Origin: Candidatus Woesebacteria bacterium
GTDB lineage: Bacteria; Patescibacteriota; Microgenomatia; UBA1400; PJMF01
Assembly (NCBI GenBank): GCA_017992725.1
Contig: JAGOOB010000001.1
Location: 553 to 64,552 of the forward strand
Length of the DNA stretch: 64,000 bases
Direction: 5' to 3'
Shown here: piece by piece, positions 5,892 to 52,430 of the stretch
How the letters are laid out: each line of letters opens with the position of its first letter
How positions within the stretch are numbered: the stretch's first letter is position 1
Translations under genes and position numbers: made by a program
The notes under the pieces: generated by a model
What the model was told of the DNA's origin: nothing
The model's database searches: none
What the model saw: the letters and a program-made list of their open reading frames with translations, nothing else

Positions 5892-6243
5892 AGCTTATTT
5901 ACCCAGCATACTCTGGGCCAGCCTAATTTTTTTCCTTTCCAATCAACAGACACTACCAGGTTTCGATTTATCTCTTTTAGATTTTCTCTTTAAAAAATCC
6001 GCCCATATCTTTGTCTATGCAGTACTTTACTACCTACTTTTTTGGGCTTATTTAAAAACTAATCCTAGCCAGACACTGAATAAGAAGCATTATGTAATCC
6101 CCTTAATAATCGGCCTCATTTATGCGCTGAGTGACGAACTACATCAATCAACAGTTAATGGCCGTCATCCGAAGCTGCGAGATGTCGCTTATGATTTTTT
6201 AGGAATGATGTCTATATTGTTACATCAACAAAAATTACTATAA
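5842..6243 (+). CDS. VanZ-like family membrane protein
   Basis: Several TM helices plus the C-terminal DELHQSTVNGRHPKLRDVAYDFLG motif typical of VanZ. The ATG at 5842 overlaps the LTD gene by 50 nt, so the start is uncertain. Confidence 0.55.
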   Translation: MITKPKRKKSAFLLYFRAYLPSILWASLIFFLSNQQTLPGFDLSLLDFLFKKSAHIFVYAVLYYLLFWAYLKTNPSQTLNKKHYVIPLIIGLIYALSDELHQSTVNGRHPKLRDVAYDFLGMMSILLHQQKLL

Positions 6244-6250
6244 TTGCTAC

Positions 6251-6267
6251 TTGACTTAATAAGTCAA
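6251..6267. promoter_or_regulatory. Perfect 8-1-8 palindrome TTGACTTA-A-TAAGTCAA overlapping a TTGACT -35-like hexamer upstream of hup
   Basis: Read directly. It lies about 60 nt upstream of the hup ATG, and the AAAAGGAGAAAACC RBS follows. Confidence 0.35.
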
Positions 6268-6325
6268 ACTAGTACACTAATTCATACGTAAAAGGACTAT
6301 TTAAAAGTTAAAAAAGGAGAAAACC

Positions 6326-7633: not shown

Positions 7634-8095
7634 TTATTTTTTCTTTTTAGTAGTTTCTTTTTTTGTCTCGGTTTTTTTGCTGGCACTGGCTTTTTTGTCA
7701 GTTTTGTTGCTATCATTTTTCAAACTCTGCCACTTTTTCTCTTCTACCAACAAACTCAATCGATAAACCGGCATATTATCACCACGTCGATTAGCTAACT
7801 TTTCTAAACTACAAAAACCACTTTTGCGCTCAGCGACTGCCGGCACTACCTGATCAAACAAAGTATTAACTACGTCTCTCTTACCAAAGTAACGATGAAT
7901 GCGCCGTCGCGTAGCCACATCTCCCTTTTGAGCCTGATTAATTAATTTATCTGCTAAACGACGAATTTCTTTAGCTCGGGCTTCACTAGTTTCAATTTGG
8001 CCATGTTCAATTAAACCACGTAAAGAATTACGCAATAAAGCCTTCCGGCTCTGCGTATCACGATTAAAATGTTTAGCTTTAACTCCGTGTTTCAT
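7634..8095 (-). CDS. rplQ: 50S ribosomal protein L17 with a K-rich C-terminal tail
   Basis: MKHGVKAKHFNRDTQSRKALLRNSL aligns with the MRHRKSGRKLNRTSSHRKAM pattern of L17. Confidence 0.9.
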   Translation of the reverse strand: MKHGVKAKHFNRDTQSRKALLRNSLRGLIEHGQIETSEARAKEIRRLADKLINQAQKGDVATRRRIHRYFGKRDVVNTLFDQVVPAVAERKSGFCSLEKLANRRGDNMPVYRLSLLVEEKKWQSLKNDSNKTDKKASASKKTETKKETTKKKK

Positions 8096-11754: not shown

Positions 11755-13050
11755 TTAACTGAGTTGGCTATAACGGTCGTAATTTTCATTTAATAATTGT
11801 GATTCAACCTGTCTAGCAGTTTCCAAAATAACCGAAACCACAATTAATAAGCTAGTTCCACCAATGGCTAAAGCCTGAATACCAGTAATCATTTGGGCAA
11901 TAGTAGGTAACACTGCAATACTGGCCAAAAAGATGGCTCCGGCAAAAGTCACTCTAGTGACCACATATTCCAAATATTTACGAGTCGGACCTCCTGGTCT
12001 AATACCAGGGATAAAAGCGCCACTTTTTTTCAACTCTTCACTGATATCTTCAGCATTAAAGAAAATGATCGCACTAAAATAACTAAAAACAAAAACTAAA
12101 ACAAAATAAATTAACAGATACCAAATACTTGTTGGTGAAAAAATTATATTGAGCTGCTCGCCCAAATTAACCCAAAATTCTCGACCAGTGAGAGTTAGAA
12201 TTCTCCCCAAAAATGGAGGTAACATCATTAACGACACAGCAAAAATGATAGGCATCACCCCTGCCACATTAACCTTAATTGGTAAATGGCTACTTTGGCC
12301 ACCAACTTGACGACCACCTTGAATGCGTTTGGCATATTGGATATTAACTTTACGTACTGCTTCATTAAAAAAGACAACTAAAGCAATCACTGCTAAAGTT
12401 AAGACTAACATCACTAAAATCACAGTGAGTTGACCATCATTGCCAGCGACAAAAGATTGACCAATACTGGCCGGAATTTGACTAAGAATACCCACTAGCA
12501 AAATCATCGAAATACCATTGCCAATGCCGTATTCGGAAATTAGTTCTCCCATCCACATCATTAACATTGATCCAGCAATGAGCGTCAAAACGACAATCAC
12601 CATTAAGCTACTTTGTTGACTAATGAGTAGATCTTGAGAATTTAACAAGGCTAGGGTAGCAATCGCTTGGATAGCAGCGACGGGTACAGAAATTATACGC
12701 ATGTATTGATTTAATTTCGCTTGACCAGATTCACCCTCTTTTTGCATTTCTTTGATTTTGGGAACAACCATACCCAACAATTGCATGACAATTGAGGCAG
12801 TAATATAGGGGTTAATACCAACTGCTACAATGGAAAATCTAGCCAGTGTACCACCAGCAAATAAATTAAGGAAACTTAAAAATTCATTACCAGCAAAAAT
12901 AAGTTTTAAACGTTCTACGTCAACAATAGGAACTGGGATATGGGCTAATAAACGAGTAATAGCAAAAATTACTAAAGTAAAAATAAGCTTTTTTTTTAAC
13001 GCTTGATTGGCAAAAATAGCCTGTATCTTTGTAATTATTTGTTCTAACAC
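11755..13050 (-). CDS. secY: Preprotein translocase subunit SecY
   Basis: 431 aa, 10 TM helices, with a SecY-typical order and motifs (GINPYITASIV, RIQGG). Confidence 0.92.
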   Translation of the reverse strand: MLEQIITKIQAIFANQALKKKLIFTLVIFAITRLLAHIPVPIVDVERLKLIFAGNEFLSFLNLFAGGTLARFSIVAVGINPYITASIVMQLLGMVVPKIKEMQKEGESGQAKLNQYMRIISVPVAAIQAIATLALLNSQDLLISQQSSLMVIVVLTLIAGSMLMMWMGELISEYGIGNGISMILLVGILSQIPASIGQSFVAGNDGQLTVILVMLVLTLAVIALVVFFNEAVRKVNIQYAKRIQGGRQVGGQSSHLPIKVNVAGVMPIIFAVSLMMLPPFLGRILTLTGREFWVNLGEQLNIIFSPTSIWYLLIYFVLVFVFSYFSAIIFFNAEDISEELKKSGAFIPGIRPGGPTRKYLEYVVTRVTFAGAIFLASIAVLPTIAQMITGIQALAIGGTSLLIVVSVILETARQVESQLLNENYDRYSQLS

Positions 13051-36261: not shown

Positions 36262-37221
36262 TTATTCTTTGACTAACTGGGCAGTAATCACTCCTCGACG
36301 CAAGGTAGTTCCTTCTGGAACGCAGGTCACTAATTTTAATTGACGAACGTCAACTCGTTGAGCAAGAATAAAAGTGTCATCGGCTTTGACTTCAGTTTTG
36401 CCTTGAACAACATAGGTATATTTGACGTTGTCATAGGTTAAATATATTTTGTCACCTTTTTCCAGAGTCATTATTTTACTAAAAATTGAATTGTAACGGC
36501 GAGGATTGTTTTCACTTGGATTATAAAATTGACGCAAAACCGAATGACCAAATATCACTGGAGCACCCAACTGTCCAGGCATTCCAGTTCCAGGATAATG
36601 AATTAAACTTTGATTAAGATCACTTCCACCAACTCGAACCTTGGCATTACTAATCCCTAAACGAGGAATGTCTAGCGTATATTCAATAAACTCGCTTGTG
36701 CTTAATTCTACGTTTTCTAGATCGTCACTAAACCAATTAGTTAGGTCTGTAAAATCAAGATCCTGATCTAAAATCACTGGTTCAGTTTCAACACTGTAAT
36801 CGGTAGTGCTATTTTCTACTATTTCAGTTTGAGCTTGAGCGGAAATTAATGGATTGCCCAACAGTAATTGCGAATTAGGTATTGGAGATAATAAAGTAAT
36901 TTCTTCTTCTTTTTTCCATGGTAAATAATAATCAATAATGGGCCAAAGCGCAGATAAAGCTAACGCCAAGCCAAAAACTATTAATGCCAATGGCAAAAAA
37001 GTTGCCCCCACTCTCACTATTTTGGGTAAGCGGCCCCAAAAATTTAACTGGATTTGCTCATCTAAATTTTTTTCGCCCTGCTGACTGGCTTTATCTTGTT
37101 TCAAAAAGTAATTAACTTTTTTATTCAAGTCTTGTATAGGCACTCCATCTCTTAGTGCTTGGCGATAAAGTTTTAACAACTGTTTTTTTTGTTTGGTCAG
37201 TTGCGGATTTGTTTTAGCCAT
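36262..37221 (-). CDS. Sortase family transpeptidase (membrane anchored)
   Basis: N-terminal TM segment. Catalytic-type motifs: His in PVIFGHS, the Cys motif LVTCVP, and a C-terminal Arg (TLRRG). Confidence 0.7.
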   Translation of the reverse strand: MAKTNPQLTKQKKQLLKLYRQALRDGVPIQDLNKKVNYFLKQDKASQQGEKNLDEQIQLNFWGRLPKIVRVGATFLPLALIVFGLALALSALWPIIDYYLPWKKEEEITLLSPIPNSQLLLGNPLISAQAQTEIVENSTTDYSVETEPVILDQDLDFTDLTNWFSDDLENVELSTSEFIEYTLDIPRLGISNAKVRVGGSDLNQSLIHYPGTGMPGQLGAPVIFGHSVLRQFYNPSENNPRRYNSIFSKIMTLEKGDKIYLTYDNVKYTYVVQGKTEVKADDTFILAQRVDVRQLKLVTCVPEGTTLRRGVITAQLVKE

Positions 37222-42960: not shown

Positions 42961-43395
42961 TTATTTGTTCAACAATTTTTTGAGAGTGCTCGCAATTCTG
43001 GATCCATCAGCTTTAGAACCCAGCGCCTGGGTAAGCTTACCCATTAATGGACCAAAATCTTTAACCGCACTTTGTTCAACAAAATCTTGAATGAATTTTT
43101 CTAGCTCTTGGTCGCTCATTTGTTCTGGCAAATATGATTGTAAAATCTTCACTATACTTTCTGTTTCGTTAATTAAATCTTCACGAGCAGCCTTCTTAAA
43201 ATCTTCTAGAGCATCTAATTGCTGATTCAACATTTTCTTGATAATTTTTACCACCGCTGCATCATCGGCCACCCCATGATCTATTTCAAAATTTTTCACT
43301 TCACTGCGAATTAAACGAATCACACCAAGACGCTCAGCATCTCTAGCCCTCATAGCTGTTTTCATATCTTCCATTAATTGTTCTTGTAAGTTCAT
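42961..43395 (-). CDS. yqeY: GatB/YqeY-domain protein
   Basis: MNLQEQLMEDMKTAMRARD ... the YqeY family. The start was moved to the ATG at 43395 (AGGAG RBS); the 18 upstream codons in the track overlap tRNA-Val. Confidence 0.8.
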   Translation of the reverse strand: MNLQEQLMEDMKTAMRARDAERLGVIRLIRSEVKNFEIDHGVADDAAVVKIIKKMLNQQLDALEDFKKAAREDLINETESIVKILQSYLPEQMSDQELEKFIQDFVEQSAVKDFGPLMGKLTQALGSKADGSRIASTLKKLLNK

Positions 43396-43413
43396 ATTTC
43401 TCCTTTTTATTAG

Positions 43414-43490
43414 TGGTGGACAATACTGGACTCGAACCAGTGACCTCACGAATGTGAATCGTGCGCTCTAACCAACTGAGCTAATTGTCC
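43414..43490 (-). tRNA. tRNA-Val (anticodon CAC), CCA encoded
   Basis: The minus strand reads GGACAAT TA GCTC AGTTGGTTA GAGC G CACGA TTCACAT TCGTG AGGTC ACTGG TTCGAGT CCAGT ATTGTCC A CCA. It is 77 nt with all stems perfect. Confidence 0.85.
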
Positions 43491-43580
43491 GTCGATTAAG
43501 TCTCTATTATAAAACAAAGCCTTAGCTTTTAGAAAGGCAAGTCATCTTCTTGTCAGTCAGTCAAATTAAAATATTCGTCA

Positions 43581-44252
43581 GTGAAAAAATTTTCTATTGC
43601 TCAAATTTGCCAAGCTTTGATCTTTCCTGATTTTTGTCAACACTGTCAACAATTAGGACCAATGTTGTGTGAGTCTTGCTATCAATTGATTGATTTTTTT
43701 TGGCAAGAGGATTACAAAGAATTTTTTAGTGAAAATTTTGATCAAGTTTACTTCGATCAAGTAAAAATCATGGCTGCTTTCAAACCACCCCTTAGTTCGC
43801 TGATTAAAGCACTCAAATATCATCACCACAGTCGAGCTGCTAAATTTTTAGCCCAGATGCTCTATTTTTACGTCAACATTGATTATCACAATATCGACAT
43901 TATTAGCTTCGTACCCATGCATCCACAAAAAAGAAAAAAGAGAGGCTACAACCAGACCCAATTGATTGCTCAAGAATTATCCCTGTGGAGTCAAACACCC
44001 TGTTTAGAATTATTGGTAAAAAGCAAAAATACAAAACCTCAAGCCCAAATTACTAACAAGGATAAAAGATTGAAAAGATTGAAAGACAGCTTTGCCATTT
44101 CCACTTTCTATCAAAATGCTTTATTTAAGCAAAATATTTTACTAATTGATGATGTGATTACCACTGGAGCTACTAGCAATAATGTCAGCCAAATCCTCAA
44201 AAATAATGGAGCCAATTCCATAACAGTATTGGCTTTAGCTTCTAAATTATAA
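43581..44252 (+). CDS. comFC: ComF family protein (ComFC-like): N-terminal zinc ribbon plus phosphoribosyltransferase domain
   Basis: Cys pairs (CQHCQQ...CESC) and the PRTase PRPP-binding motif LLIDDVITTGAT. GTG start at 43581. Confidence 0.75.
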   Translation: MKKFSIAQICQALIFPDFCQHCQQLGPMLCESCYQLIDFFWQEDYKEFFSENFDQVYFDQVKIMAAFKPPLSSLIKALKYHHHSRAAKFLAQMLYFYVNIDYHNIDIISFVPMHPQKRKKRGYNQTQLIAQELSLWSQTPCLELLVKSKNTKPQAQITNKDKRLKRLKDSFAISTFYQNALFKQNILLIDDVITTGATSNNVSQILKNNGANSITVLALASKL

Positions 44253-44268
44253 GCAGTTAGTAATTTAC

Positions 44269-44297
44269 TTGAATTCCTCGAGAGAAAATGCTATAAT
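44269..44297 (+). promoter_or_regulatory. Near-consensus sigma70-type promoter driving ssrA (tmRNA)
   Basis: TTGAAT (44269-44274), a 17-nt spacer, then TATAAT (44292-44297). The mature tmRNA 5' end lies 17 nt downstream of the -10 hexamer. Confidence 0.55.
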
Positions 44298-44313
44298 CAG
44301 GCGTTCATTAACA

Positions 44314-44715
44314 GGGGATGTATTGCATTGACGTCAGTCAACTTTAATCATCGCAGATCATCTTTGGTGAAAAGATGTCAAACAGCACCAATAAATAACT
44401 GTCAAAAACAGTTTAAAAACAGTAGCTAATAAAATCGCCAGTCTTTTTGACTTCGGTTATGTAGCTGCTCCAGCTTTTGCTTAATTGCAATTGCTGGCAT
44501 CTAGTGATGGGCTCTTATCGGCGACTCACATTAGGTGACAACCCAGTCGATTGGCAGAAATAAAGAAGCAGATCGCTTTATTTCCAAGAATATGATCTGG
44601 ATGAAACAAAAAAAGTTTGTTTATTCACTTATTGTTTCAAATCAAAAATAAACTAAATCTGTAGAGATCGTTAAAGATTGATTAGCGGACGCGGGAGCAA
44701 AACCCGCCATCTCCA
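44314..44715 (+). ncRNA. ssrA: Transfer-messenger RNA (tmRNA, SsrA)
   Basis: 5' GGGGATG pairs with 3' CATCTCC-A, including a G3:U wobble (the alanine identity element). The 3' GGACGCGGG-(7-nt loop)-CCCGCC block matches the E. coli tmRNA T-arm stem exactly. An internal ORF reads ...IASLFDFGYVAAPAFA-TAA (44425/44437-44484), a plausible proteolysis tag. CCA is only partly encoded. Confidence 0.75.
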
Positions 44716-44750
44716 CAAAACACTATTTATAGCTTTTAATAAATGATTTT

Positions 44751-46133
44751 TTAAAGCTCTATATCTAAGCAATGGTGCTTTTGACAAATGTTATTTTCTA
44801 AAGATTCTTTTATTTTTAACTCATCACTTGAATAAGCTTGGTTCATAATAAAAAAAACATTTCTACTGGCTAAGCTCAATAATTCATTCTGCAAGTTTTG
44901 ATTTTGTGAACTATCTCTTTCAATTAAGTAAACGGAAGAATTATTTTTATTAATTAATAGGTAATAACTAATTAAATCAACGTCATCCATAAGTAGCACA
45001 ATGCTGTTTGATGGAATTTTTTGTTTAATTGTATTTTGAATATTTTCCCTAAATAAAAAGCCATAGTTATTAAAAGAATTAATCGCCAAGATTAATAAAG
45101 TTATCATCATAAAAAACTCATAACGCAATTTTTGATGAAATTGGGCAAAAACGAATACAACCAATAAACTAAATAACACTAATTGTCTGGCTAAAAAAAC
45201 TGGAAAAAATAAAATCGAGATAATAGTCGCCAAACCAATTGTGCCCGTAGACGAAAAAAATAAAAATTGATTAATTAACGATTTGTCTTTCTTTAAATTA
45301 GTTGTAATTATTACCAAAAATAGCGGAAAATAAAAACCAACGAAGTCATGACCAAACAATAATTTTGTTTGATATACAAACCAATTTAAATCAAAATAAG
45401 GTACACTTCCAGCAATAGCATTACCATTTTTAATGGGTAACAAATAATTTAACAAAATACAAATTTGATAAATAGAGCAAACAAAAAATAAAAACAAACT
45501 GCAAAATATATTTTTACTATGCATCTTTTCTTTTTTAAAAAACAAGAAAATAGCCAAAAAAAACAGTGAAAAAATTAACCAAATAACTCCATAACTAATA
45601 AAAAAACAGATACTTAATAAGAAGCCAATTAAAATAGTTTTATAAACTTTTGGGTAAAAAAAGTTAGAAAAAATGACATAAATTAACAAAAGCATCAAAA
45701 AAATTAATAAAGCATAAGGTCGAACTTGAAAAGACAAATTAATTAATAATGGATGTAGAGAAAATAAACTTATTGCTAAATAACTAGTCTTACGACTTTT
45801 GAAAAATAAACTAATTCTATAAACTAAGTAAATGCTTGGAAAAAACCAAATCAGACTGGTCAAACGTAACCACCAATCCGCATGCCCAATTATTAACATT
45901 AATTTTAAATAAATATAATATAGAGGTGGATGCCTAAAATCGGAAAAATTCCCATTCGAAAAAAATAATTCCCTCCAGCTTAAGTCTGTTGAATTAAAAT
46001 AGGAAATTGCTTCATCATTCCAAAAATCAGTGGTCAATCCATAATAAAAACGAATAATTAACCCAATTAAAAAACTAATTACAGCAATAATTAGCCATCT
46101 ATTTCGACTTACCGATAACCGCATTCTCCCCAT
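44751..46133 (-). CDS. GT-C fold membrane glycosyltransferase (GT39/GT83-like, PMT/ArnT family)
   Basis: 460 aa, about 11-12 TM helices, with a DE motif in the first extracytoplasmic loop (FWNDEAISY) typical of the PMT/ArnT family. Very AT-rich codon usage. Confidence 0.6.
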   Translation of the reverse strand: MGRMRLSVSRNRWLIIAVISFLIGLIIRFYYGLTTDFWNDEAISYFNSTDLSWRELFFSNGNFSDFRHPPLYYIYLKLMLIIGHADWWLRLTSLIWFFPSIYLVYRISLFFKSRKTSYLAISLFSLHPLLINLSFQVRPYALLIFLMLLLIYVIFSNFFYPKVYKTILIGFLLSICFFISYGVIWLIFSLFFLAIFLFFKKEKMHSKNIFCSLFLFFVCSIYQICILLNYLLPIKNGNAIAGSVPYFDLNWFVYQTKLLFGHDFVGFYFPLFLVIITTNLKKDKSLINQFLFFSSTGTIGLATIISILFFPVFLARQLVLFSLLVVFVFAQFHQKLRYEFFMMITLLILAINSFNNYGFLFRENIQNTIKQKIPSNSIVLLMDDVDLISYYLLINKNNSSVYLIERDSSQNQNLQNELLSLASRNVFFIMNQAYSSDELKIKESLENNICQKHHCLDIEL

Positions 46134-46213
46134 AAAACATCTAATATTTTAAAGTTAACTACTCGATCTAATTTTCAATCTTATCTAAATAAACTTAGCA
46201 GTGCCATAAAAAA

Positions 46214-48406
46214 CTAAAACGGTTCTTTACCCGCCAAATATTCTTGAAATTTGGCTGGGTAAACTTCCCTGGCTTTGCTGCCTTGAGCTGGTCCCACGAG
46301 ACCAGCTTCTTCTAGCTGGTCTAAAATTCTAGCTGCTCGAGCATAGCCAACCGACAAGTGTCTTTGAATGGCACTTGATGAGGCACTGTCGCTAGTAGCA
46401 AATAGCCGCACTGCCTCATCAAAAAGTTCATCTCGGTCAGCTTCTCCCTCAACACTGACACTTACCGAGCCACCTACCTTGCTTACTTGATATTTACTAA
46501 CAATATCTTCCTCATAATTGGGCTTTTTACCTTGTGATCTGAGAAAATCCACTAATTGATCAATTTCTTTAGAGGCGACAAAGGTACCTTGAATACGCGC
46601 CGGTTTGGCTCTGTCAGGCGAGAGGTAAAGCATATCTCCTTTACCTAATAATTTTTCTGCTCCTGGTGTATCTAAAATCACCCGACTATCAGTGACGCTT
46701 GATACATTAAAAGCAATTCTAGTTGGCATATTGGCCTTGATTAAACCAGTGATAACATCTACCGATGGTCTTTGAGTGGCTAACACTAGATGAATACCTA
46801 CTGCACGAGCCATTTGTGCAATACGAGTGACATTATCTTCAACTTCTTTAGGCGCAAAAAGCATAATGTCGGCCATTTCATCAATGACAATTACAATGTT
46901 TGGCATCGTAGCTAAACCAGCTAGCTCATTGTAGTCATGAATTGAACGGACCCCAACTTCATTTAATAATTTATAGCGTTTTTCCATTAATTCAACCGCC
47001 CATTTAAGAGCTGAAATTACCTTGTCAGGATCATGAATGACTGGTGTTAACAAATGAGGAATATCATGATATTTGCCAAGTTCAACCCGTTTTGGGTCCA
47101 CCAAAATTAATTTGACTTCTTCTGGAGTGGCCCTAAATAAAATTGAACACAAGAAAGCATTAACACAAACTGATTTACCAGAACCGGTGGCACCAGCAAT
47201 CAAGAGGTGTGGCATTTCAGAGATGTCAGCCACAACTGGCTTACCAGCTACATCAACACCTAAACTGACCGCTAATTTAGAAGGATGTTTTTTAAGTATT
47301 GGTGAAGACAACATTGTTTTCAGTGGCACAATTTCCGCACTATGATTTGGTACTTCTACTCCCACTAAATTTCGACCTGGAATAGGCGCTTCAATTCTTA
47401 CTTGTCCGGTAGGTGCGGCCAGGGCTAGGGCTAAATCAGTGGACAGGGCAGTAATTTTAGCCAAACGAGTACCCTGACTAATCTCCAAACAGTACTGAGT
47501 GACAGCAGGACCAGGATTGTATTCGACTACCTTGGCATTAATGCCGAAAGAATCTAGTGTATTTTCAATAATTTGTGCATTGGCTTTAACATCACCACGG
47601 TCAGCTTTTGCTCCTTTTTCCACAGTCAGCAAAGACAACGGCGGATAATCCCAAATCATTGGCGTTGACGAAGCATTTAATGCTTCCTCTCCGTCTAAAC
47701 TATTTGAGGGGAGTTTATTATCTATTACCTTTTTCTCAGTTAAAACCGCCGTACTACTAGTTTGATCCAGCTCAATTTCTTTCTGAAAATCACTTCCTCT
47801 TTTTAAATCCTTTTTGCCAAAAGCTAACTTGGGGATGAAAAAGTGCCGCGATTTTTTAATTTCTTGATCAGTAATATCTTTATCAAGAGTCTTAACATCT
47901 TTTTTAGCTGATTTTTTTTGATGGTTTTTACTAATTATTTTACTGATACCATTAACCAGATCAGTCAAAGAACTTTGAGAAAGAATTAAAAAACCAATAA
48001 TAGTTAGCGCTCCATAAACAATATAACTGCCAACAGCACTAATTAAGAGAGCTAAATTGTTGAAAATATTTATACCAATTTCTCCACTTCGAGACACTCC
48101 CATCGCGCCAATCATCATCACAATCACGCCAAGCAAAATGGTGGGTTTAGACCAAGCGTGCTTGCTGCGGATCATTACCAGTCCAGACGCAATAAAAACA
48201 AATGGTAAAAATAACATTGATAAGCCAAGTTTATTTGCCAAAAAATTATTCAGGGTAATTAACCATTGTCCTTGCCCAGTAAAAGAGACTAAAACCAAAC
48301 TACCAAACATAATGAGTAGAACGGCAATGATGGAATAGGTAGTGTCGGCCCGCATTTTCATGCGAATCGCTTTACGTTTTTTACGACGGGACTTTCTTTT
48401 TGCCAT
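46214..48406 (-). CDS. ftsK: DNA translocase FtsK/SpoIIIE
   Basis: N-terminal TM domain, Walker A (LLIAGATGSGKS), Walker B, and a winged-helix gamma domain (SSSAIQRHLSVGYARAARILDQLEEAG). Confidence 0.9.
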   Translation of the reverse strand: MAKRKSRRKKRKAIRMKMRADTTYSIIAVLLIMFGSLVLVSFTGQGQWLITLNNFLANKLGLSMLFLPFVFIASGLVMIRSKHAWSKPTILLGVIVMMIGAMGVSRSGEIGINIFNNLALLISAVGSYIVYGALTIIGFLILSQSSLTDLVNGISKIISKNHQKKSAKKDVKTLDKDITDQEIKKSRHFFIPKLAFGKKDLKRGSDFQKEIELDQTSSTAVLTEKKVIDNKLPSNSLDGEEALNASSTPMIWDYPPLSLLTVEKGAKADRGDVKANAQIIENTLDSFGINAKVVEYNPGPAVTQYCLEISQGTRLAKITALSTDLALALAAPTGQVRIEAPIPGRNLVGVEVPNHSAEIVPLKTMLSSPILKKHPSKLAVSLGVDVAGKPVVADISEMPHLLIAGATGSGKSVCVNAFLCSILFRATPEEVKLILVDPKRVELGKYHDIPHLLTPVIHDPDKVISALKWAVELMEKRYKLLNEVGVRSIHDYNELAGLATMPNIVIVIDEMADIMLFAPKEVEDNVTRIAQMARAVGIHLVLATQRPSVDVITGLIKANMPTRIAFNVSSVTDSRVILDTPGAEKLLGKGDMLYLSPDRAKPARIQGTFVASKEIDQLVDFLRSQGKKPNYEEDIVSKYQVSKVGGSVSVSVEGEADRDELFDEAVRLFATSDSASSSAIQRHLSVGYARAARILDQLEEAGLVGPAQGSKAREVYPAKFQEYLAGKEPF

Positions 48407-51911: not shown

Positions 51912-52430
51912 TTAAGATTGTTTTGCCCTAAGCGTCAAGCCTAAACCGATACTTAACATCGCAACAGCTAAAAATAACAAACTAACGGTGGTAGAACCAG
52001 CATTAGGCAGGGTAGTGGTGCTAGTTGTAGCAACAGTTTCAAGATTGCCACTGGCAGTACTACTGTTACCAATTGTTAACACAAAATCTAAAGTCTCTGT
52101 TGCTGTAGATAAATCAAATTGATGCTCTCCTTCACTTAAAGACGAGATTAGCGTACTCCAACTACCCTCCTCATCTGCAGTCGCCGTTCTAGTTAAGTCA
52201 TCAATAGTAATTGAAATAACGGCCGAGGGTGAAGCTAAACCAGTTAAGGCAAAAGTCCCCCCAGAATAATTATATTCCTTCAAACTCCCACCCAAATCTA
52301 AATTAGAAACATCCATGGTACCTATGGCTGTAATTTGCAGCGCGGCCGCCCTTACTTTACTACTAAAAAAGAGTGGGAAAATAATCAATAAAGAGATAAG
52401 ACAAATTACAATTTTTTTCATATTTCTCAT
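51912..52430 (-). CDS. Secreted, cell-wall-sorted protein with an LPNAG sorting signal (sortase substrate)
   Basis: N-terminal signal peptide and S/T-rich body. The C-terminal LPNAG, hydrophobic stretch (VSLLFLAVAMLSIGLGLTL) and RAKQS form a classic tripartite sorting signal. Confidence 0.7.
   Translation of the reverse strand: MRNMKKIVICLISLLIIFPLFFSSKVRAAALQITAIGTMDVSNLDLGGSLKEYNYSGGTFALTGLASPSAVISITIDDLTRTATADEEGSWSTLISSLSEGEHQFDLSTATETLDFVLTIGNSSTASGNLETVATTSTTTLPNAGSTTVSLLFLAVAMLSIGLGLTLRAKQS

Follow-up and report, generated by a model that had tools for sequence, protein, structure and literature searches.

Does an unusually AT-rich gene that lies directly 3' of a transfer-messenger RNA (tmRNA) gene mark an integrated island, or can such a gene be an old resident? 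We addressed this question for a predicted membrane glycosyltransferase gene (44751-46133, minus strand, 460 aa) in a 64-kb stretch of a Candidatus Woesebacteria contig, referred to here as the window. An earlier reading of the letters alone (the sequence-only reading) had proposed that this gene was a small acquired locus at ssrA, the tmRNA gene. A full-length match to Rfam model RF00023 (97.5 bits; positions 1-374 of the model) on the plus strand at 44314-44718 confirmed that the gene stands directly downstream of ssrA; the two are convergent, and the gap between them is 32 nt. On the upstream side, 80 nt separate the glycosyltransferase gene from ftsK, a core gene identified by its Pfam FtsK domains (46214-48406, minus strand). 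From the observed fold, motifs, composition, synteny, presence/absence and divergence statistics, we consider it likely that this is an accessory GT-C gene of long standing, passed on vertically, under weak constraint and dispensable, and not a recently integrated tmRNA island. The gene's place between ftsK and ssrA would go back to the ancestor of a genus-level Paceibacteria clade, with vertical inheritance ever since. Weak purifying selection in an AT-rich genome would have pushed the gene toward AT-rich codons and F/I/L/Y/N/K residues, and, being dispensable, it would have disappeared on more than one occasion and been disrupted on another.

To compare the locus across genomes, relatives' loci (numbered with the prefix L) were drawn by FtsK from species-representative genomes and metagenomes, together with contigs encoding homologues of the glycosyltransferase. 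Orthologues with 54-77% identity were found at the ftsK-glycosyltransferase-ssrA position in several related Paceibacteria. This order was seen in L015, L009, L018 and L051, and in L053 the gene lies directly after ftsK. The glycosyltransferase tree, (L009, (L015, (window, (L051, L053)))), agreed with the FtsK tree. We measured synonymous divergence (dS) by the Nei-Gojobori method for the glycosyltransferase gene and the adjacent ftsK in the same genome pairs. The respective values were 0.593 and 0.596 for window-L051, 0.466 and 0.615 for L051-L053, and 0.712 and 0.964 for window-L053. Since the tree was congruent and dS was similar to that of ftsK, the gene has probably kept this position from the clade ancestor onward, by vertical inheritance. 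On the other hand, the ratio of nonsynonymous to synonymous divergence (dN/dS) was 0.24-0.31 for the glycosyltransferase against 0.026-0.062 for ftsK, about 5-10 times higher. It was also the most diverged gene of the neighbourhood, with 67% identity compared to 71-87% for the other genes in L015, and 54% compared to 62-86% for full-length neighbours in L009. Judged from these sequence comparisons, the gene is under purifying selection yet appears weakly constrained. A low-GC gene beside a tmRNA gene can thus mimic an island even when it is an accessory gene of long residence, vertical descent and weak constraint, and the test that discriminates is a synonymous divergence equal to that of the neighbouring core gene.

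We then analyzed the base composition that had drawn attention to the gene. Its GC content was 25.9% as compared to 37.4% for the window (z = -5.4), and it was the lowest-GC 1383-bp stretch across all 64 kb. The sequence-only reading had correctly singled it out as the outlier, but it had put the nearby genes at about 40-45% GC, and the flanking genes were at ~35-40%. GC at the three codon positions (GC1/GC2/GC3) was.272/.272/.235 in this gene and ~.50/.35/.29 in other genes. The deficit therefore lay mainly at codon positions 1 and 2, and GC3 was inside the.23-.40 range of the other 66 genes. F/I/L/Y/N/K residues made up 56% of the protein. When the protein sequence was held fixed and codons were drawn from the window's own usage, the expected GC was 28.9%, indicating that amino-acid composition accounts for ~76% of the GC deficit. 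This agreed with the earlier suggestion that part of the AT bias reflects an F/I/L/Y/N/K-rich membrane protein; about three quarters of the deviation is explained in this way, and the remainder is -2.9 points. The ssrA-linked orthologues were each the AT-richest gene of their own locus (23-28% GC, flanks 34-37%), while homologues within glycan clusters were just 2-6 GC points under their neighbours. Both the enrichment in F/I/L/Y/N/K and the slight synonymous AT excess would, we infer, result from AT-biased mutation in a membrane protein under weak constraint.

The content of the ftsK-ssrA interval was compared next. In the genus-level clade (FtsK 85-97% identical to that of the window), ftsK, ssrA, comF, yqeY and the genes beyond were collinear and the ftsK-ssrA interval varied. 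Using Rfam and blastn, we located tmRNAs at the corresponding place in L009, L015, L016, L018-L027, L051, L060 and L063, and the ComF-like gene adjoined ssrA throughout the clade as well as in those outgroup loci whose contig extends that far. The interval held the glycosyltransferase gene alone in the window, L051 and L053. The gene was accompanied by a gene for a DUF2079 membrane protein in L009, and by a gene for a small sortase substrate with an LPESG motif in L061/L017 plus L015, one metagenome-assembled genome (MAG). The LPESG protein gene occurred alone in L019-L021 and L063, and the slot was empty (47-51 bp) in L016, L060 and L064. In L018 (10201-11582) and L062 (7201-8579) a single nucleotide missing from a T-run splits the glycosyltransferase gene, as compared with the copy of L009, which is intact and 91% identical. 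Since the split was seen in two independent assemblies, it likely marks a pseudogene, or else a slippage-prone gene. In an outgroup family (FtsK ~57-60%), the slot held, on the opposite strand, a gene for an NTP_transferase of ~255 aa (sugar-nucleotidyltransferase-like), sometimes with further open reading frames (ORFs); these loci were L022 (10145-10918), L023-L025, L027, L065-L070 and L079. Where FtsK identity was ~46-51%, ssrA was not beside ftsK, nor was it in two partial loci at 63-64%. The same flanks thus enclosed differing content across related genomes, and the interval would be a small flexible slot for cell-surface genes. In the sequence-only reading, the same gene at the same place with similar composition in all close relatives would have spoken against acquisition; we found gene, position and low GC to be common to many but not all of them.

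The closest comparison of a filled and an empty slot was that of L051, which has the gene, with L060 and L064, which do not. Their ftsK genes were 98.5-98.6% identical over up to 1694 bp and the tmRNA plus comF region was 98.96% identical over 1056 bp, both without gaps. Homology ended just past the ftsK stop codon and resumed exactly at the tmRNA 3' end. Presence or absence of the glycosyltransferase gene therefore appears to vary at about the species level. The empty spacer of L060 was homologous (p ~0.001) to that of L016, which belongs to another species (ftsK 85% identical in nucleotides). The 80-nt spacer upstream of the gene in the window (46134-46213), the presumed promoter and ribosome-binding-site region of the gene-present haplotype, was homologous to that of L051 (0/1000 shuffles reached the score). 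This upstream spacer showed no significant similarity to the empty-slot spacers, and the AT-rich 32 nt that separate the tmRNA 3' end from the glycosyltransferase stop codon (44719-44750) had no similarity to the spacers of the empty-slot relatives. A recent deletion of the gene allele was considered as the source of the empty spacers and rejected, because the L060 spacer matches L016 and neither of the L051 spacers, in spite of flanks that are ~99% identical. The boundary of the haplotypes was found to reach into ftsK itself: 6 of the 23 mismatches between the L051 and L060 genes fell in the last 47 bp, and this tail (window 46214-46260, the last ~45 bp) tracked the slot haplotype, with one form in the window and L051 and another in L016 and L060. 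The 'gene' and 'empty' states would then be a pair of long-standing haplotypes that homologous recombination moves, with ftsK and ssrA as its anchors. Slot alleles, the old empty one included, have apparently been swapped in this way through the two flanking genes.

Two further insertions had left traces in the slot. In L009, a 62-bp direct repeat (57/62 identical; 6233-6294 and 7728-7789) flanked the DUF2079 gene that lies between ftsK and the glycosyltransferase gene. The repeat consisted of the ftsK 3' end with its stop codon, the spacer and ATGAAAAAA, and the DUF2079 ORF ended in an internal ftsK fragment (VELIQKRYKLLKEVGVRTI) just ahead of the downstream copy. L018, which is 98% identical to L009 in flanking proteins, had a single repeat copy and no DUF2079 gene. 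In L061 (7214-7790), and alike in L017 (10200-10750), the small signal-peptide LPESG protein gene lay between ftsK and the glycosyltransferase gene and was followed by a displaced, degenerate window-type ftsK 3' end (GKFQEYLVGKEPF, stop mutated), while the functional ftsK tail resembled those of L019 and L009. The duplications seen in the slot were all of the ftsK 3' end and none of ssrA. From their sequences, both insertions look like one-sided-homology or Campbell-type events at ftsK and not at ssrA, and occasional one-sided insertions of this kind would leave the duplicated ftsK 3' end behind. [quoted passage not shown] A stronger version of this idea is that the ~45-60 bp ftsK tail together with the tmRNA 3' end forms a dedicated site at which Paceibacteria swap single cell-surface genes as integrase-less cassettes. 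The cassettes would be GT-C enzymes, the DUF2079 membrane protein and sortase-anchored proteins, and they would move by natural transformation with one-sided homology or through a site-specific recombinase, as yet unrecognised, that acts on the ftsK tail. The suggestion is compatible with two independent insertions that each left a displaced ftsK 3' copy and with an L051/L060 haplotype boundary in the same ~45 bp; we regard it as tentative and, on balance, unlikely. If it were true, reduced genomes would have in it a compact locus for surface variation. A short inverted repeat (CCAAAT...ATTTGG) in the ftsK tail, considered as a conceivable recombinase site, overlapped the conserved K-F-Q-E-Y-L codons. 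The copy of the LPESG surface-protein gene in L061 had an in-frame stop ahead of the sorting motif.

Known parallels to the slot are chromosomal gene-flux hotspots between core genes and low-GC surface-polysaccharide genes, wzx/wzy of O-antigen loci among them. The slot was similar to these in having conserved flanks (ftsK on one side and ssrA-comF on the other) around variable cell-surface cargo, in the apparent exchange of divergent alleles through flank homology and in a membrane glycan enzyme as the AT-richest gene. It differed from them in its tiny size (0-2 genes in the clade and up to ~3 kb in one outgroup locus), in its location in a reduced genome of the candidate phyla radiation (CPR), in having a tmRNA gene as one edge, and in insertions that leave ftsK 3' duplications. 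The locus documents strain-level presence or absence of a surface-glycosylation gene in CPR bacteria, which are hard to grow and about whose envelope glycobiology very little is known. As a marker locus, the ftsK-ssrA slot could be of use where surface variation is studied in populations, for instance when phages or hosts exert pressure.

How well does integration at ssrA compete with this account? In the Islander definition (PMC4383910), tDNA islands are marked by an integrase and, at their far end, by a displaced piece of the target gene, and tmRNA genes are documented integration targets. The window locus could be a degraded island of this type if site-specific integration into the 3' end of ssrA occurred in the clade ancestor, the integrase and the attachment (att) repeat were lost, and the glycosyltransferase gene is the surviving cargo. 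As with tRNA and tmRNA islands, the gene is directly 3' of ssrA, only 32 nt from the tmRNA end, its composition is atypical with low GC, and it is present or absent among relatives with a breakpoint that coincides with the mature tmRNA 3' end; it is also absent at the site in more distant relatives. The defining parts of an island were, however, not detected at the window locus. The glycosyltransferase gene was the sole ORF of at least 50 aa between ftsK and ssrA in the window, hence there is no integrase gene inside, and no integrase was found among the Pfam families of the relatives' slot ORFs, several of which had no Pfam match of any kind. A 16-nt pattern from the tmRNA 3' end, with up to 3 mismatches allowed, matched only itself across the window, so that the duplicate of the tmRNA 3' end for which the sequence-only reading had advised a search was not there. 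Repeats over 43400-46700 were short AT-rich matches alone, with none at the slot boundaries, and none of the relatives' slots examined held a displaced tmRNA fragment. The remark in the earlier reading that neither an integrase nor a clear att duplication was present thus held true. One 37-nt repeat (D1, 44644-44680 and 45802-45838, 73%) was evaluated as an att duplicate and rejected, being inside the ORF, AT-rich and judged a chance match. Moreover, slot duplications involved only the ftsK 3' end, the AT bias was mostly amino-acid driven, and the ftsK-like dS and congruent tree make any such event older than the clade; a single 1.4-kb gene that is as old as its clade and has core-like synonymous divergence is unlike known islands. 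Taken together, we consider a degraded tmRNA-targeted island very unlikely.

A second possibility is that the gene was acquired recently from an AT-richer donor, that its low GC reflects this foreign origin and that it is spreading among strains. The gene has the lowest GC of the window and a residual synonymous AT excess, L051 differs from L060/L064 at the strain level, and the ~45-bp ftsK tail that travels with the slot haplotype speaks for recombinational exchange. But the equal dS of the glycosyltransferase gene (0.593) and ftsK (0.596) for window-L051 largely refutes a recent arrival, the glycosyltransferase tree follows that of FtsK, the GC3 of.235 is within the range of the window's genes, and the orthologues of four other lineages have the same composition; this explanation seems to us extremely improbable. 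What stands of the earlier proposal of a small acquired locus at ssrA is that the gene is accessory and occupies a variable spot edged by the tmRNA 3' end, where three relatives have only ~50 bp. What is not supported is a recent or integrase-mediated acquisition. At the other extreme, the gene could be an ordinary core gene for a membrane protein, its AT-richness purely an effect of a hydrophobic product and its locus neither variable nor accessory. The share of the GC deficit explained by amino-acid composition and the position kept in several species are in line with that. However, the gene was absent from three close relatives, near-identical strains included, it was frameshifted in L018 and L062, and its dN/dS was 5-10 times that of ftsK. 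A 343-aa ORF of the window (11755-12786), which we take to be secY from its position in the ribosomal-protein operon alone, had a normal GC of.379 and an F/I/L/Y/N/K content of.385. We therefore regard the core-gene explanation as distinctly unlikely. Several points also weigh against the old, vertically inherited accessory gene that we favor. The residual synonymous AT excess of -2.9 points ranks second lowest among 67 genes and amounts to ~2 SD (standard deviations) of the gene-to-gene spread, and GC3 is in the low tail of the window's genes; relaxed selection is plausibly the cause of the residual excess. The outgroup genomes have another gene in the slot, and arrival on the clade stem by an ancient integration at ssrA is conceivable. 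All comparison genomes were metagenome assemblies, and ~5-10 kb around each relative's slot was compared, so that genes counted as lost could be elsewhere in those genomes. As to the envelope role expected of such an enzyme, no other glycosylation gene and no polyprenyl-phosphate sugar synthase or flippase was found by Pfam among the ORFs at 1-7 kb and 34.8-64 kb of the window; the stretch between 7 and 34.8 kb is by position a block of ribosomal-protein, elongation-factor and RNA-polymerase genes. Because partner genes were lacking in the scanned parts, the donor and acceptor named below are guesses.

The enzyme itself was identified from its domain and its predicted fold. Pfam PMT_2 matched with 30.3 bits (cut-off 26.1) and covered residues 68-218 only. 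An NCBIfam search of the protein gave no match and no equivalog, and a family-profile search of the Protein Data Bank (PDB) sequences gave nothing at E <= 1; the family assignment thus relies on Pfam and the fold together. The AlphaFold2 model, computed from 13 homologues (pLDDT 78.5, pTM 0.79), had ~12 long, presumably transmembrane (TM) helices between residues 12 and 356, followed by a C-terminal alpha/beta domain of ~100 aa, and a Kyte-Doolittle scan showed the multiple hydrophobic segments of a polytopic membrane protein. In a Foldseek search against PDB, 16 of the 16 matches with E <= 0.001 were GT-C oligosaccharyltransferases (STT3, PglB, AglB). The next matches, at probability 1.00, were ArnT, Pmt1-Pmt2, EmbA/B/C, AftD and ALG9, with a few low-probability non-GT-C matches interspersed. 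On the strength of this model, the ORF is predicted to encode a membrane glycosyltransferase of the GT-C fold, which agrees with the earlier description of a PMT/ArnT-like enzyme with ~12 TM segments. TM1 (residues 12-34) lies behind an Arg-rich N-terminus, and D40-E41 follow directly after. An acidic motif after TM1 is the catalytic position in GT-C enzymes. The residues invariant in the 13-sequence alignment were D40, E41, H68, P69, F135-Q136-V137-R138, R316, C450 and C455, the two cysteines being in the C-terminal alpha/beta domain. The ArnT/PMT_2 family (CAZy GT83/GT39-like) was similar in several respects: ArnT of Cupriavidus metallidurans (PDB 5f15) has the same GT-C membrane fold (TMq 0.54, TMt 0.47), residues 68-218 match Pfam PMT_2, the acidic pair immediately behind TM1 and an H-P-P motif in the loop that follows resemble the catalytic and phosphate-binding motifs of that family, and the NCBI label of the 67% orthologue is 'glycosyltransferase family 39 protein'. 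In contrast to that family, the window protein has merely 460 aa with a small C-terminal domain, is ~10-15% identical to solved structures, lacks an NCBIfam equivalog, and has no arn-type or other partner genes near it in the Pfam-scanned parts. The oligosaccharyltransferases gave the best Foldseek E-values (1e-5 to 1e-3, probability 1.00) and have the GT-C_A architecture in common with it, but TM-scores were just ~0.45-0.53 and those proteins have 640-860 aa. STT3, PglB and AglB carry large extracytoplasmic domains with a WWDYG motif; the window protein is without such a large domain, and there is no pgl-type cluster here. The profile search returned 13,854 representative clusters at E <= 0.001 and 48 at E <= 1e-30, suggesting a small subfamily inside a very large superfamily, of which the enzyme is an unremarkable member.

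By analogy with ArnT, PMT and STT3, the enzyme would take a sugar from a polyprenyl-phosphate carrier and deliver it to an envelope acceptor outside the membrane, with catalysis predicted at the Asp40-Glu41 pair in the first extracytoplasmic loop. The type of donor and the acceptor are possible assignments by the same analogy. Homologues at 34-48% identity were found in large Wzy-type glycan clusters (WecG, GT1, GT2, Wzy_C, epimerase, carbamoyltransferase), and one at L057 with only a Wzy_C gene alongside. The clusters suggest an envelope glycopolymer as a candidate acceptor. Serine/threonine-rich (S/T-rich) sortase-anchored proteins, namely an LPNAG protein of the window and the LPESG paralogues of the slot, are another possible acceptor judged from sequence features; the sequence-only reading had named the LPNAG protein as one that might be glycosylated. 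The LPNAG protein (51912-52430, minus strand, 172 aa) combines a signal peptide with an S/T-rich stretch, the LPNAG sorting motif, a TM segment and a basic tail; the LPESG proteins in the relatives' ftsK-ssrA slot are its paralogues, with ~30-34% identity. S/T-rich stretches precede the sorting motif in both, and in one relative the LPESG gene is directly upstream of the glycosyltransferase gene. A sortase gene is also present in the window at 36262-37221. A 750-aa protein beside the sortase gene was considered as the LPNAG protein and rejected, as no LPXTG-like motif was found in it.

On the far side of ssrA from the glycosyltransferase gene, a ComF-like phosphoribosyltransferase-domain gene (43581-44252, plus strand; weak Pribosyltran match) lies on the 5' side of ssrA and was used as the synteny anchor to the right; the variable slot itself is edged by the tmRNA 3' end on that side and by ftsK on the left. 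A tRNA-Val gene follows. The glycosyltransferase gene had been described as lying on the opposite strand; this is true relative to ssrA only, since it shares the minus strand with nearly all window genes, to which ssrA and the ComF-like gene are the exceptions. An identical glycosyltransferase protein was present on nine metagenome contigs with unchanged neighbours. A promoter and terminator scan of 44200-46300 gave counts not above those of shuffled sequence. An ARAGORN run on the window reported no tmRNA, though Rfam detects one at 44314-44718. The window tmRNA terminates in CTCCACAA, so that CCA is not encoded, unlike in the tmRNAs of L016, L018 and L009. Relative to the Rfam model, it had a 48-nt insertion in the tag-coding region, where the open frame ends in NSLKTVANKIASLFDFGYVAAPAFA followed by a stop. 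Unusually long tmRNA matches were obtained for L067 (574 nt), which also had two more unannotated slot ORFs (146 and 352 aa), and for L025 (558 nt). Several contigs broke at the slot: L059 ended 9 bp past ftsK, L017 and L061 ended in or near the glycosyltransferase gene and L015 started inside it, a pattern that strain heterogeneity or low coverage of a very AT-rich gene could produce. L016, L019-L022, L024, L025, L027 and others were third-party annotation (TPA) MAG records labelled 'uncultured Pseudomonadales bacterium', and one Spirochaetia, and were plainly Patescibacteria by gene content and FtsK similarity. Finally, the longest-ORF call of the YqeY-like gene (42961-43449, minus strand; GTG start at 43449) overlapped tRNA-Val (43417-43490, minus strand), and the ATG at 43395, which gives 144 aa as in public contigs, is likely the true start.

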